A stretch of DNA of 64,000 bases from Escherichia coli (lineage in GTDB: Bacteria > Pseudomonadota > Gammaproteobacteria > Enterobacterales > Enterobacteriaceae): the NCBI RefSeq assembly GCF_029227855.1, contig NZ_CP074356.1; one strand, 5' to 3'. The notes below the pieces were generated by a model. The model did not search any database, had not been told where the DNA came from, and saw only the letters and a program-made list of their open reading frames with translations. A program made the position numbers and the translations under genes. Within the stretch, counting starts at the first letter, position 1. Every line of letters starts with the position of its first letter. Below, piece by piece: positions 7,113 through 61,606 of the stretch.

Positions 7113-8105
7113 ATGAGTCAGAATACGCTGAAAGTTCATGATTTAAATGAAGATGCGGAATTTGATGAGAACGGAGTTGAGGTTTTTGACGAAAAGGCCT
7201 TAGTAGAAGAGGAACCCAGTGATAACGATTTGGCCGAAGAGGAACTGTTATCGCAGGGAGCCACACAGCGTGTGCTGGACGCGACTCAGCTTTACCTTGG
7301 TGAGATTGGTTATTCACCACTGTTAACGGCCGAAGAAGAAGTTTATTTTGCGCGTCGCGCACTGCGTGGAGATGTTGCCTCCCGCCGCCGGATGATCGAG
7401 AGTAACTTGCGTCTGGTGGTAAAAATTGCCCGCCGTTATGGCAATCGTGGTCTGGCGTTGCTGGACCTGATCGAAGAGGGCAACCTGGGGCTGATCCGCG
7501 CGGTAGAGAAGTTTGACCCGGAACGTGGTTTCCGCTTCTCAACATACGCAACCTGGTGGATTCGCCAGACGATCGAACGGGCGATTATGAACCAAACCCG
7601 TACTATTCGTTTGCCTATTCACATCGTAAAGGAGCTGAACGTTTACCTGCGAACCGCACGCGAGTTGTCCCATAAACTGGACCACGAACCAAGTGCGGAA
7701 GAGATCGCAGAGCAACTGGATAAGCCAGTTGATGACGTCAGCCGTATGCTTCGTCTTAACGAGCGCATTACCTCGGTAGACACCCCGCTGGGTGGTGATT
7801 CCGAAAAAGCGTTGCTGGACATCCTGGCCGATGAAAAAGAGAACGGTCCGGAAGATACCACGCAAGATGACGATATGAAGCAGAGCATCGTCAAATGGCT
7901 GTTCGAGCTGAACGCCAAACAGCGTGAAGTACTGGCACGTCGATTCGGTTTGCTGGGGTACGAAGCGGCAACACTGGAAGATGTAGGTCGTGAAATTGGC
8001 CTCACCCGTGAACGTGTTCGCCAGATTCAGGTTGAAGGCCTGCGCCGTTTGCGCGAAATCCTGCAAACGCAGGGGCTGAATATCGAAGCGCTGTTCCGCG
8101 AGTAA
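7113..8105 (+). CDS. rpoS: RNA polymerase sigma factor RpoS (sigma-38)
   Basis: Track ORF 7077..8105; start set to the ATG encoding [21 protein letters not shown], giving 330 aa; sigma-70 family regions present. Confidence 0.95.
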
Positions 8106-8122: not shown

Positions 8123-8152
8123 AGGCCAGTCTCAAGCGAGGCTGGCCTTTTT
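8123..8152 (+). terminator. Rho-independent terminator of rpoS
   Basis: Hairpin aggccag...ctggcct followed by TTTTT, 18 nt after the rpoS stop. Confidence 0.8.
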
Positions 8153-8154
8153 GT

Positions 8155-8865
8155 TGTGCACAGAAAACCCCCAGCTAGGCTGGGGGTTCCGGAAAGCTTT
8201 CAGCTTTAAGCCAGTTATTAAAACCCCTTTTGATTTGTTAAAACACCTTGCGGTCTGGCAACTGCAAGTGTCAAACAAGAAATCAAAAGGGGGTCCCAAT
8301 GGGGAACGAAAAGAGCTTAGCGCACACCCGATGGAACTGTAAATATCACATAGTTTTTGCGCCAAAATACCGAAGACAGGTGTTCTACAGAGAGAAGCGT
8401 AGAGCAATAGGCAGTATTTTGAGAAAGCTGTGTGAGTGGAAAAGTGTACGGATTCTGGAAGCTGAATGCTGTGCAGATCATATCCATATGCTTGTGGAGA
8501 TCCCGCCCAAAATGAGCGTATCCGGCTTTATGGGATATCTGAAAGGGAAAAGCAGTCTGATGCTTTACGAGCAGTTTGGTGATTTGAAATTCAAATACAG
8601 GAACAGGGAGTTCTGGTGCAGAGGGTACTACGTCGATACGGTGGGTAAGAACACGGCGAAGATACAGGATTACATAAAGCACCAGCTTGAAGAGGATAAA
8701 ATGGGAGAGCAGTTATCGATTCCCTATCCGGGCAGCCCGTTTACGGGCCGTAAGTAACGAAGTTGGATGCAAATGTCAGATCGTGTGCGCCTGTTAGGGC
8801 GCGGCTGGTAAGAGAGCCTTATAGGCGCATTTGAAAAACCTCCGGCTATGCCGGAGGATATTTAT
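8155..8865 (+). mobile_element. IS200-family insertion sequence (IS200/IS605 family); boundaries approximate
   Basis: Intact 152-aa Y1 HUH transposase with the HxH motif; hairpin at the left end (8166..8188); imperfect stem-loop around the RBS (8226..8290); hairpin at the right end (8839..8857); overall size about 0.7 kb as expected for IS200. Confidence 0.8.
8299..8757 (+). CDS. tnpA: IS200/IS605-family transposase TnpA (Y1 HUH)
   Basis: Track ORF 8248..8757 trimmed to the ATG preceded by an AAAAGGGGG Shine-Dalgarno; product 152 aa, MGNEKSLAHTRWNCKYHIVFAPKYRR...HIHMLVEIPPK, typical IS200 TnpA. Confidence 0.9.
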   Translation: MGNEKSLAHTRWNCKYHIVFAPKYRRQVFYREKRRAIGSILRKLCEWKSVRILEAECCADHIHMLVEIPPKMSVSGFMGYLKGKSSLMLYEQFGDLKFKYRNREFWCRGYYVDTVGKNTAKIQDYIKHQLEEDKMGEQLSIPYPGSPFTGRK

Positions 8866-8897
8866 TTCTTTTGGTTGGGGAGCCGGTGTGTTTGTGG

Positions 8898-8939: not shown

Positions 8940-9347
8940 CTATGTGTTCATCATCTTGCGCACTAGCTGCATAAACAGCTCCTGCTCTTCTCCACTCAAA
9001 CGCCCCAAAAATTCCTCATCCACGCTGTCACCTATCGGTATCGCCGCAGCAAGTATCTTTTCGCCTTCGGCAGTCAGCCAGACAAAGCGTCGCCGCTTGT
9101 CAGCGGCGTCATGTTCACGTCTGACTAAGCCACGATTTTCCATTCTTGCCAACATTTCTGCCAGCGTTGCTTTGGTGCTGACGGCTGCTTCTATCAGTGC
9201 CACCTGTTCGATACCAGGCTTATCAGCAATGGCGCGCATCACCGCGTACTGTGGTTTGGTCAGGTCAGGTAACTCGTGCTGCCAGCGGGCCGTGTGTTGC
9301 TGAAAAAGCTGTCGTAACTGATGGAACGCTTTATTTCGTAACGCCAT
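8940..9347 (-). CDS. hosA: MarR/SlyA-family transcriptional regulator (HosA-like)
   Basis: Track ORF 135 aa with a winged-helix MarR fold signature; divergent from the UbiX/UbiD-type operon. Confidence 0.8.
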   Translation of the reverse strand: MALRNKAFHQLRQLFQQHTARWQHELPDLTKPQYAVMRAIADKPGIEQVALIEAAVSTKATLAEMLARMENRGLVRREHDAADKRRRFVWLTAEGEKILAAAIPIGDSVDEEFLGRLSGEEQELFMQLVRKMMNT

Positions 9348-9462
9348 GTAAACTCCGGGCTAATTCTCTGTCGCTATCATAGCGGTTTTTCAGTGACGAA
9401 GAAGATGTTGTTACTTTTCAATCCTTGCCGCTGTGGAAATGAAGGAGTATGTTAATAATAAC

Positions 9463-9476
9463 GTTCGTATACGAAC
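9463..9476. promoter_or_regulatory. Perfect 14-bp palindrome GTTCGTATACGAAC in the hosA/ecdB divergent region; candidate MarR-type operator
   Basis: Exact inverted repeat read in the sequence, 18 nt upstream of the ecdB ATG. Confidence 0.5.
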
Positions 9477-9493
9477 AATTAAGAGAGTAAGCA

Positions 9494-10087
9494 ATGAAAC
9501 TGATCGTCGGGATGACAGGGGCTACCGGTGCGCCTCTTGGTGTGGCATTACTGCAAGCGCTGCGGGAGATGCCGAATGTCGAGACTCATCTGGTGATGTC
9601 GAAGTGGGCGAAAACCACTATTGAACTGGAAACGCCTTACAGCGCTCGCGATGTTGCCGCCCTCGCAGACTTCAGCCATAACCCGGCGGATCAGGCGGCG
9701 ACCATCTCCTCAGGTTCCTTTCGTACCGACGGCATGATCGTTATTCCGTGCAGTATGAAAACGCTCGCCGGTATCCGTGCCGGTTACGCCGATGGCCTGG
9801 TAGGGCGCGCGGCGGACGTCGTGCTCAAAGAAGGCCGCAAACTAGTGCTGGTGCCGCGTGAAATGCCGCTTAGCACCATCCATCTCGAAAATATGCTCGC
9901 ACTTTCACGCATGGGCGTGGCGATGGTGCCGCCGATGCCTGCCTTTTATAACCATCCCGAAACGGTAGATGACATTGTCCACCACGTGGTAGCCCGCGTG
10001 CTGGATCAATTTGGCCTCGAACATCCCCACGCCAGGCGCTGGCAAGAATTGCCGCAGGTCCGGAATTTTTCTCAGGAGAATGAATAA
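9494..10087 (+). CDS. ecdB: UbiX-type flavin prenyltransferase, B subunit of a non-oxidative hydroxyarylic acid decarboxylase
   Basis: Track ORF 197 aa; N-terminal MKLIVGMTGATGAPLG flavoprotein motif (UbiX/Pad1 family). Confidence 0.85.
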   Translation: MKLIVGMTGATGAPLGVALLQALREMPNVETHLVMSKWAKTTIELETPYSARDVAALADFSHNPADQAATISSGSFRTDGMIVIPCSMKTLAGIRAGYADGLVGRAADVVLKEGRKLVLVPREMPLSTIHLENMLALSRMGVAMVPPMPAFYNHPETVDDIVHHVVARVLDQFGLEHPHARRWQELPQVRNFSQENE

Positions 10088-11514
10088 TGGCATTTGATAA
10101 TTTACGCAGCTTTTTACAGGCGCTTGATGACCACGGCCAGTTACTGAAAATCAGCGAAGAGGTGAACGCGGAACCGGATCTGGCAGCAGCAGCTAACGCC
10201 ACCGGGCGTATCGGCGACGGCGCGCCCGCGCTGTGGTTTGACAATATTCGCGGCTTTACCGATGCCCGTGTGGCGATGAATACCATCGGTTCCTGGCAGA
10301 ACCACGCGATTTCCCTCGGCCTGCCGCCAAACACCCCGGTCAAAAAGCAGATTGATGAGTTTATCCGCCGCTGGGATAACTTCCCCATTGCCCCGGAGCG
10401 CCGCGCCAATCCAGCCTGGGCGCAGAACACCGTCGATGGCGACGAGATCAACCTGTTCGATATCCTGCCGCTGTTTCGTTTAAACGATGGCGATGGCGGT
10501 TTCTATCTCGACAAAGCGTGCGTGGTTTCCCGCGATCCGCTCGACCCGGATAACTTCGGCAAGCAGAACGTCGGTATCTATCGTATGGAAGTGAAGGGCA
10601 AACGTAAGCTCGGCCTGCAACCGGTGCCGATGCACGATATCGCCCTGCATCTGCATAAAGCGGAAGAACGCGGTGAAGATCTGCCGATTGCCATCACCTT
10701 GGGTAACGATCCGATCATCACGCTGATGGGGGCCACGCCGCTGAAATATGATCAGTCCGAGTATGAAATGGCAGGCGCGCTGCGCGAAAGCCCGTACCCG
10801 ATCGCCACCGCCCCGCTGACCGGTTTTGATGTGCCGTGGGGCTCGGAAGTGATCCTCGAAGGGGTCATCGAAAGCCGTAAACGCGAAATCGAAGGGCCGT
10901 TCGGTGAGTTTACCGGGCACTACTCCGGCGGGCGTAACATGACCGTGGTGCGTATCGATAAAGTCTCTTACCGCACCAGGCCGATTTTCGAATCGCTGTA
11001 CCTCGGCATGCCGTGGACAGAAATCGACTACCTGATGGGGCCAGCCACCTGCGTGCCGCTGTATCAGCAACTGAAAGCCGAGTTCCCGGAAGTGCAGGCG
11101 GTGAACGCCATGTACACCCACGGCCTGCTGGCGATTATCTCCACCAAAAAACGCTACGGTGGCTTTGCCCGCGCGGTGGGCCTGCGTGCGATGACCACGC
11201 CACACGGTCTGGGCTACGTGAAGATGGTGATTATGGTCGATGAAGACGTTGATCCGTTCAACCTGCCGCAGGTGATGTGGGCGCTCTCTTCGAAAGTGAA
11301 CCCGGCAGGGGATTTGGTGCAGTTGCCGAATATGTCCGTGCTGGAACTCGACCCTGGCTCAAGCCCGGCCGGTATCACCGACAAGCTGATTATCGACGCC
11401 ACCACGCCTGTCGCCCCGGACAACCGTGGTCACTACAGCCAGCCGGTGGTGGATTTACCGGAAACCAAAGCCTGGGCTGAAAAACTGACCGCTATGCTGG
11501 CCGCACGTAAATAA
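10087..11514 (+). CDS. ecdC: UbiD-family decarboxylase, C subunit
   Basis: Track ORF 475 aa; UbiD family; start overlaps the ecdB stop (ATAATGG). Confidence 0.85.
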   Translation: MAFDNLRSFLQALDDHGQLLKISEEVNAEPDLAAAANATGRIGDGAPALWFDNIRGFTDARVAMNTIGSWQNHAISLGLPPNTPVKKQIDEFIRRWDNFPIAPERRANPAWAQNTVDGDEINLFDILPLFRLNDGDGGFYLDKACVVSRDPLDPDNFGKQNVGIYRMEVKGKRKLGLQPVPMHDIALHLHKAEERGEDLPIAITLGNDPIITLMGATPLKYDQSEYEMAGALRESPYPIATAPLTGFDVPWGSEVILEGVIESRKREIEGPFGEFTGHYSGGRNMTVVRIDKVSYRTRPIFESLYLGMPWTEIDYLMGPATCVPLYQQLKAEFPEVQAVNAMYTHGLLAIISTKKRYGGFARAVGLRAMTTPHGLGYVKMVIMVDEDVDPFNLPQVMWALSSKVNPAGDLVQLPNMSVLELDPGSSPAGITDKLIIDATTPVAPDNRGHYSQPVVDLPETKAWAEKLTAMLAARK

Positions 11515-11524
11515 GGAGAACAAG

Positions 11525-11761
11525 ATGATTTGTCCACGTTGTGCCGATGAACAGATTGAAGTGATGGCGAAATCGCCGGTAAAAGATGTCTGGACGGTCT
11601 ACCAGTGCCAGCATTGCCTCTATACCTGGCGCGATACCGAACCGCTACGCCGCACCAGCCGCGAACATTACCCGGAAGCGTTTCGTATGACGCAGAAAGA
11701 CATTGATGACGCGCCAATGGTGCCGAGCATTCCGCCGCTGCTGGCGGAAGGTAAGCGCTAA
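11525..11761 (+). CDS. ecdD: Small zinc-ribbon subunit (D) of the decarboxylase
   Basis: Track ORF 78 aa with CPRC...CQHC; third gene of the three-gene operon. Confidence 0.75.
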   Translation: MICPRCADEQIEVMAKSPVKDVWTVYQCQHCLYTWRDTEPLRRTSREHYPEAFRMTQKDIDDAPMVPSIPPLLAEGKR

Positions 11762-60840: not shown

Positions 60841-60933
60841 GGTGAGGTGGCCGAGAGGCTGAAGGCGCTCCCCTGCTAAGGGAGTATGCGGTCAAAAGCT
60901 GCATCCGGGGTTCGAATCCCCGCCTCACCGCCA
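60841..60933 (+). tRNA. serV: tRNA-Ser (anticodon GCU)
   Basis: 93-nt type II tRNA, ggtgaggtggccgagaggc...ccgcctcaccgcca, with anticodon loop ctGCTaa and long variable arm. Confidence 0.95.
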
Positions 60934-60936
60934 TTT

Positions 60937-61013
60937 GCATCCGTAGCTCAGCTGGATAGAGTACTCGGCTACGAACCGAGCGGTCGGAGGTTCGAATCCT
61001 CCCGGATGCACCA
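60937..61013 (+). tRNA. argV: tRNA-Arg (anticodon ACG), copy 1
   Basis: 77-nt cloverleaf gcatccgtagctcagctggatagag...cctcccggatgcacca, anticodon loop ctACGaa; 3 nt after serV. Confidence 0.93.
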
Positions 61014-61128
61014 TATTCTACGTACTTTCAGCGATGAAGGTATGGAAGAGGTGGCGGTAATAACCGCAGGCACCAGGGAGGATAACGTTGCTTTAGCAAC
61101 GGCCCGAAGGGCGAGCCGCAAGGCGAGT

Positions 61129-61147
61129 AATCCTCCCGGATGCACCA
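61129..61147 (+). other. Orphan 3' fragment of a tRNA-Arg gene (T-loop/acceptor remnant) inside the 198-nt spacer
   Basis: aatcctcccggatgcacca is identical to the last 19 nt of the intact tRNA-Arg copies but has no 5' acceptor strand; the spacer after it matches the other inter-tRNA spacers. Confidence 0.7.
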
Positions 61148-61211
61148 TCTCTTACTTGATACGGCTTTAGTAGCGGTATCAAAAAATCTGAAGTAAAGTA
61201 AGTTTCCCGAT

Positions 61212-61288
61212 GCATCCGTAGCTCAGCTGGATAGAGTACTCGGCTACGAACCGAGCGGTCGGAGGTTCGAATCCTCCCGGATGCACCA
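61212..61288 (+). tRNA. argY: tRNA-Arg (anticodon ACG), copy 2
   Basis: Identical 77-nt sequence to copy 1. Confidence 0.93.
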
Positions 61289-61350
61289 TCTCTTACTTGA
61301 TATGGCTTTAGCAGCGGTATCAATATCAGCAGTAAAATAAATTTCCCGAT

Positions 61351-61427
61351 GCATCCGTAGCTCAGCTGGATAGAGTACTCGGCTACGAACCGAGCGGTCG
61401 GAGGTTCGAATCCTCCCGGATGCACCA
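61351..61427 (+). tRNA. argZ: tRNA-Arg (anticodon ACG), copy 3
   Basis: Identical 77-nt sequence to copy 1. Confidence 0.93.
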
Positions 61428-61529
61428 TATTCTCCGTAATCATCAGTGATGATGGTTAAGATGGATTTTCTTATTTGATATGGCTTTAGTAGCGGTATCA
61501 ATATCAGCAGTAAAATAAGTTTTCCCGAT

Positions 61530-61606
61530 GCATCCGTAGCTCAGCTGGATAGAGTACTCGGCTACGAACCGAGCGGTCGGAGGTTCGAATCCTCCCGGAT
61601 GCACCA
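61530..61606 (+). tRNA. argQ: tRNA-Arg (anticodon ACG), copy 4
   Basis: Identical 77-nt sequence to copy 1. Confidence 0.93.

Follow-up and report, generated by a model that had tools for sequence, protein, structure and literature searches.

The analysed window, a stretch of 64,000 nucleotides from Escherichia coli (contig NZ_CP074356.1, assembly GCF_029227855.1), carries a regulator gene and a divergently oriented decarboxylase operon between rpoS (ending at 8105) and a gene for a GntP-family transporter, that is, in the variable rpoS-mutS region. The operon, ecdBCD (9494-11761, plus strand), comprises three adjacent genes whose products all score above the curated NCBIfam cutoffs for the decarboxylase subunits B, C and D. 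The first gene, ecdB (9494-10087, plus strand), encodes a VdcB-type UbiX flavin prenyltransferase of 197 aa (310.8 bits, cutoff 290). It is followed by ecdC (10087-11514, plus strand) for VdcC, the UbiD-family decarboxylase subunit C (788.9 bits, cutoff 650), and by ecdD (11525-11761, plus strand) for the small subunit D, VdcD (121.2 bits, cutoff 30). The RefSeq annotation of the matching locus agrees with the assignment as a non-oxidative hydroxyarylic acid decarboxylase.

The divergent gene, hosA (8940-9347, minus strand), encodes the operator-binding protein, a MarR-family repressor of 135 aa. Its product exceeds the Pfam gathering scores of both MarR families that were matched (PF01047, 45.7 bits versus 24.6; PF12802, 42.1 versus 27), which places it among the MarR-type winged helix-turn-helix proteins. 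It is almost identical to the HosA of the crystal structures, residues 1-135 aligning with seven PDB entries titled “Transcriptional regulator HosA”, 8aga among them (E = 2.4e-84), and it is 98.5% identical to the protein of EPEC E2348/69. Since the scores against the equivalog models of SlyA (29 versus 120 bits) and MarR (27 versus 240 bits) remain far below their cutoffs, HosA constitutes a separate lineage.

Two further features of the window were recorded in passing. An IS200C copy (8140-8880; tnpA 8299-8757, plus strand) lies right after the rpoS terminator and before the 3′ end of hosA, and it includes the IS200 5′-UTR RNA (Rfam STnc490, 8166-8289, 146 bits). The annotations of several E. 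coli genomes include this insertion, with 100% identity in JNEC-KY178, whereas FDAARGOS_497 has an identical hosA/ecdB gap but lacks the IS200C insertion. A cluster of five tRNA genes (60841-61603, plus strand), four of them with identical scores, is unrelated to the operator.

The coding regions of hosA and ecdB are separated by a gap of 146 bp, and within this gap GTTCGTATACGAAC occupies positions 9463-9476. The sequence (GTTCG-TATA-CGAAC) equals its own reverse complement, confirming the perfect 14-bp palindrome of the original prediction. It is not extendable, as the flanking bases are C (9462) and A (9477). The prediction had further placed the palindrome in the divergent hosA/ecdB region with its end 18 nt before the ecdB start; this holds when counting from the last palindromic base to the A of the ATG (9494), with 17 nt lying in between. 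The palindrome, which has a zero spacer, was absent from the output of a general repeat search and was detected with a direct palindrome script.

Taken alone, a perfect palindrome of 14 bp is not above chance and proves nothing by itself. The window contains three perfect palindromes of at least 14 bp, compared to 3.76 ± 1.78 expected from 100 shuffles, and the chance expectation for a gap of 146 bp is roughly 0.01. A search with the degenerate pattern GTTCGNNNNCGAAC allowing up to one mismatch gave five matches in the window versus 3.0 expected, with 9463-9476 as the sole exact match; no further HosA site was found in the window apart from these one-mismatch matches at chance level (4172, 32767, 36159, 38175). 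Elsewhere in E. coli, the fliC promoter has been reported as a HosA site. What raises the palindrome above chance is its conservation, because its arms are invariant in all 74 species loci compared, while the neighbouring alignment columns carry 0-1 bit.

The comparison with published work showed that this palindrome is already known. The HosA protein of E. coli UMN026 recognises 4-hydroxybenzoate (PMC6261655), and the same study used a synthetic 43-bp DNA “containing 14-bp TFBS of HosA”, described as palindromic, from which HosA is dissociated by 4-HBA in EMSA; beside EMSA and 4-HBA release, the site was also studied by BLI. In the supplementary oligonucleotides of that paper the site stands within its natural flanks, TAATAATAAC ... 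AATTAAGAGA, which are also the flanks in the window, and oligo T_H contains exactly the same 14-mer. A second study (PMC6694116) lists the oligonucleotide dsDNA(HosA)-F, in which the HosA-binding motif CGTTCGTATACGAACA is given in upper case within unrelated flanks. This 16-bp motif corresponds to window positions 9462-9477 and, like the 14-bp operator, is a feature without strand. In the EMSA of this study both HosA and CBD-HosA bind the motif, and p-hydroxybenzoate specifically releases them. A full-text search of the literature for the 14-mer gave no match, since it is printed in supplementary tables alone.

Each of the two studies refers to Roy & Ranjan 2016 (Biochemistry 55:1120, doi 10.1021/acs.biochem.5b01163). 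Later papers describe this work as having mapped the palindrome downstream of the HAD-operon transcription start, and as reporting that HosA represses the operon in vivo and is counteracted by 4-HBA, which derepresses it. According to later preprints, the same work suggests from the position of the site a steric block of RNA polymerase (roadblock model) and reports that HosA is autoinhibitory, i.e. that hosA is autorepressed.

Several oligonucleotides in the tables of PMC6261655 and PMC6694116 carry an additional T (GTTTCGTATACGAAC, 15 nt), whereas the text speaks of 14 bp. Other oligonucleotides in the same tables show the exact 14-mer, and all genomic alleles aligned here read GTTCGTATACGAAC. 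As the E. coli allele that matches the flanks of the published oligonucleotides has the perfect palindrome, we take the extra T as a printing or design slip. The window sequence is identical to the motif bound by HosA in experiments, with the caveat of the extra T in some of the oligonucleotides. It also lies in the divergent gap between hosA and the HAD operon, beside the first decarboxylase gene, the same position as in the 74 species loci. Positions 9463-9476 are the HosA operator, a feature published since 2016; the original prediction was right in this respect, while it was not the first. Binding by HosA and release by 4-hydroxybenzoate may be carried over to the window site from the experiments published for the identical sequence. 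The proposal that the palindrome is a MarR-family operator through which the decarboxylase operon is repressed finds support in both the published HosA binding and the comparative data. Likewise, the EMSA with and without 4-hydroxybenzoate that had been suggested as a check exists in the literature for the exact sequence, with a shift by HosA and release by the ligand (PMC6694116, PMC6261655).

Scanning the hosA/ecdB gap with a strict sigma-70 consensus revealed no promoter. With relaxed settings, an ecdB promoter was predicted on the plus strand with a −35 element TTGCCG (9425-9430) and a −10 element TATGTT (9448-9453), separated by 17 nt; at 8/12 consensus matches this assignment is based on conservation. 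The TTG of the −35 element is conserved across genera, and for the geometry TTGnnn-17-TAnnnT the spacer is found in about 64/74 loci, and a distance of 9-10 nt to the palindrome in 61/74. In the window, the −10 element ends 9 nt before the palindrome and implies a transcription start near 9460, assuming that transcription begins about 7 nt after the hexamer. Counted from this predicted start, the operator would cover about +3 to +17, and its predicted position agrees with later papers on Roy & Ranjan 2016, which place the site on the downstream side of the start.

The centres of the two operator arms are 9 bp apart, a spacing that fits MarR-type dimers touching successive major grooves. We consider it highly probable that the divergently encoded MarR-family repressor HosA binds this palindrome and blocks ecdBCD, and that it is released by 4-hydroxybenzoate. 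A HosA dimer would place one winged helix-turn-helix on each GTTCG/CGAAC arm. Since the operator lies at about +3 to +17, the bound protein is expected to hinder RNA polymerase at the start site or directly beyond it: it would either occupy the DNA of the open complex or block promoter escape, and would keep the genes of the non-oxidative 4-hydroxybenzoate/hydroxyarylic acid decarboxylase off. Binding of 4-hydroxybenzoate, the substrate of the enzyme, would then cause HosA to leave the DNA and allow induction of the operon. Of this scheme, we infer the exact start site in the window strain, the steric mechanism and the control of hosA through the same single site.

In order to assess the conservation of the site, its sequence was compared both within E. 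coli and across genera. Among complete E. coli genomes, the gap sequence of the window is present in 2330/5426 and is always chromosomal. A search for copies on plasmids gave no evidence of plasmid carriage: its five matches are chromosome- or megaplasmid-sized records filed as plasmids. Across five E. coli alleles, the gaps differ by up to about 11% and the palindrome is unchanged.

A second chromosomal copy was observed in E. coli 15.TR.026_OXA (NZ_CP032145.1; locus L005, 1498-2741). Here the gap is interrupted by one end of IS26 a short distance upstream of the −35 element; what is left comprises promoter and operator together with ecdB and a truncated ecdC, with no hosA beside them. The copy is bounded by IS10A and adjoins a class 1 integron.

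For the cross-species comparison, one genome per species was scanned by HosA alignment, which resulted in 80 hosA loci. A usable divergent hosA-ecdB arrangement was present in 74/80, and these loci represent 16 named genera (Escherichia to Rahnella). All 74 loci contain the site, with positions 2-5 (TTCG) and 10-14 (CGAAC) invariant throughout. In total, 9/14 operator positions are thus invariant; 70/74 loci retain the first G, which is replaced by A (position 0) in four Rahnella-type loci. The central four bases vary by transitions only, so that the pattern YRYR is kept, and the changes are one-sided rather than symmetric. Beside the operator most alignment columns hold 0-1 bit of information, and the flanks drift. 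Based on this alignment, the operator consensus can be refined to GTTCG-YRYR-CGAAC, located at a constant 9-10 nt downstream of the predicted −10 hexamer. The distance from the operator to the ecdB ATG ranges between 15 and 21 nt; exceptions are an Entomohabitans locus (L078) with 24 nt and Rahnella with 35-36 nt.

The six remaining loci (L056, L066, L071, L076, L084 and L074) have a rearranged neighbourhood, and all of them keep the palindrome. Five carry hosA without an adjacent ecdB match (all except L074); in L066, the only one of the five that was inspected, the operon begins directly with ecdC and the site precedes this gene. L074 has about 430 additional bp between hosA and ecdB, and the site is still found 16 nt from the ecdB ATG and not near hosA. 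Since this distance was kept despite the extra sequence, the operator evidently travels with the decarboxylase promoter. Overall, the site co-occurs with hosA in 80/80 of the hosA loci examined.

These data also bear on other explanations of the palindrome. With a transcription start near 9460 the palindrome would itself be transcribed, and it could form an RNA hairpin (stem GUUCG/CGAAC, loop UAUA) in the ecdB 5′ UTR that affects stability or translation; this hairpin is present in the MFE fold of 9458-9520. However, the fold is no better than that of shuffled sequences (z = −0.29; 71/200 shuffles as good), and the stem of only 5 bp ends 17 nt from the ATG and leaves the ribosome-binding site uncovered. 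The arms are invariant in sequence, beyond what pairing alone explains, and the few substitutions affect one side without a compensating change on the other. In addition, the distal copies of the site in other genera (described below) are located upstream of the −35 element, where they are not transcribed from the ecdB promoter, and nevertheless retain CGAAC. Considering also the published direct binding of HosA to DNA (PMC6261655, PMC6694116), we regard a main role as an RNA hairpin as very unlikely. No Rfam family scored above its gathering score at the palindrome, and a structured 5′ UTR RNA element was rejected as a candidate, given the lack of compensatory changes and a fold equal to shuffled sequence.

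Another regulator, either a paralogous protein of the MarR/SlyA type or a global one, might be the main protein bound at the site, with HosA being secondary. E. coli does have several MarR/SlyA paralogues, and HosA was named as a SlyA homologue. This explanation has to be set against the joint occurrence of the site and hosA in all 80 loci, the scores of HosA far under the SlyA and MarR equivalog cutoffs, and the finding that HosA binds the motif and dissociates in the presence of the substrate of the neighbouring operon (PMC6261655, PMC6694116), all of which leave it very little probability. As regards a palindrome formed by chance, the numbers within the window would allow it, with three observed where about 3.8 are expected per 64 kb, and 9477-9462 was picked up on the minus strand by a terminator scan, where six pairs, three being G-C, precede a T-rich tail; this could be read as a weak intrinsic terminator. 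Conservation excludes the chance reading: the site is invariant across 16 genera while its flanks drift, it keeps a fixed distance to a conserved promoter, and specific binding has been published (PMC6261655, PMC6694116). On the minus strand, only sequence antisense to ecdB lies upstream, with no gene to terminate, and the stem is short and weak. Hence, a palindrome without any regulatory role is extremely improbable. The intrinsic terminator was rejected as a candidate, being flagged on the minus strand only, with 3/6 G-C pairs and no gene ending upstream of it.

Beside the operator proper, the alignment revealed a second HosA-like site in 38/74 species. It is located 56-57 bp upstream of the proximal site, at a distance of about 73-77 nt from the ecdB ATG, and its end lies 4 nt before the TTG of the −35 element. 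Its pattern, G-[AGC]-[TCA]-CG-YRYR-CGAAC, has an invariant right arm (CGAAC) and a left arm that mostly reads GATCG, and the site is weaker than the proximal one. Genera with the distal site include Klebsiella, Enterobacter, Kluyvera, Lelliottia, Leclercia, Pseudocitrobacter, Phytobacter and others (loci L012, L014, L021, L024-L028, L032, L033, L036-L038, L040, L042, L045-L055, L057-L063, L067-L070 and L072). Among the 74 loci, those of Escherichia, Citrobacter, Salmonella, Kosakonia, Atlantibacter and Rahnella lack it. The Escherichia stretch aligned to it (about 9409-9422) matches approximately 4/14 positions by eye and was counted as absent. The alignment also shows a shorter gap in Escherichia, by about 26 bp, with the difference lying near hosA. 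The distal site is possibly unreported. It is conceivable that the single operator of Escherichia derives by reduction from a control region with two operators, and we put this forward as a tentative suggestion with the odds somewhat against it. If the distal site is functional, be it in hosA autoregulation or in cooperative repression, autorepression of hosA in Escherichia must use the one remaining site.

Regarding the expression of hosA itself, a candidate divergent promoter was found on the minus strand, composed of TTAATT (9482-9477), a spacer of 16 nt and TATTAT (9460-9455), with a weak match to the consensus (8/12). Its spacer consists of the palindrome plus two bases, and it overlaps back-to-back with the predicted −10 region of ecdB. 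Outside Escherichia this candidate is unconserved; it could provide a route to hosA autorepression via the single site. Closer to the gene, an alignment of 18 genomes revealed conservation of a block, CTATCATAG, which lies 27-35 nt upstream of the hosA ATG (9374-9382, minus strand). Across genera the block is conserved as CTATCATAG or CTATGATAG, the latter being its own reverse complement. Judged from its sequence and position, it is probably the −10 element of hosA (TATGAT on the minus strand), and for this element no acceptable −35 partner was found in E. coli with the relaxed sigma-70 scan.

With the regulator, the operator, the ligand and the repressed operon all published since 2016, the value of the present analysis lies in confirmation: the true operator was correctly picked from the raw sequence by a reader working without tools, and the comparison across 16 genera supports the published site independently. 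The motif of 14-16 bp already serves as a part in biosensors for (paraben-derived) 4-hydroxybenzoate. The distal site could be of interest for the tuning of HosA-based sensors and for studies on the evolution of MarR-type control regions.

Among known systems, the closest is the HosA operator of the HAD operon in E. coli UMN026, which has the same 14-bp palindrome between the same flanks (TAATAATAAC ... AATTAAGAGA) in the divergent gap. The regulator is the same (about 98% identical), as is the inducer logic, and nothing essential differs. Outside the palindrome, the gap allele of the window shares about 89% identity with the UMN026-like and EPEC alleles, and, unlike the UMN026 system, the window locus has the IS200C copy downstream of hosA.

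PcaV of Streptomyces coelicolor (PDB 4fht/4g9y) is among the closest solved relatives other than HosA (E = 8.2e-16), tied with 6pcp, an unnamed MarR-family entry. PcaV is a protocatechuate-responsive MarR repressor, in which a ligand of the hydroxybenzoate type frees a palindromic operator in front of an operon for the catabolism of aromatic acids. It differs from HosA in the sequence of its operator and in its targets, the pca operon, and the similarity is distant, so that PcaV is no orthologue. In the MarR/marO system of E. coli, a winged-helix dimer likewise binds palindromic DNA near the promoter of a divergent locus and is released by phenolic ligands. While marO comprises two sites, overlapping the −35/−10 elements and the ribosome-binding site, the hosA/ecdB region of E. 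coli contains only one site, immediately downstream of the predicted start. HosA matches the Pfam MarR family, but reaches only 27 bits against the MarR equivalog cutoff of 240.

Finally, the best NCBIfam models for HosA and EcdB come from the bagremycin/ferroverdin cluster of Streptomyces (BagL/FevM-BagM/FevK-BagN/FevL). HosA scores 88 bits against BagL/FevM (cutoff 230) and EcdB 338 bits against BagM/FevK (cutoff 420); with both scores below the curated cutoffs, the window proteins are not members of these families. These best matches suggest that the pairing of a MarR regulator with UbiX/UbiD genes recurs far outside the Enterobacteriaceae.
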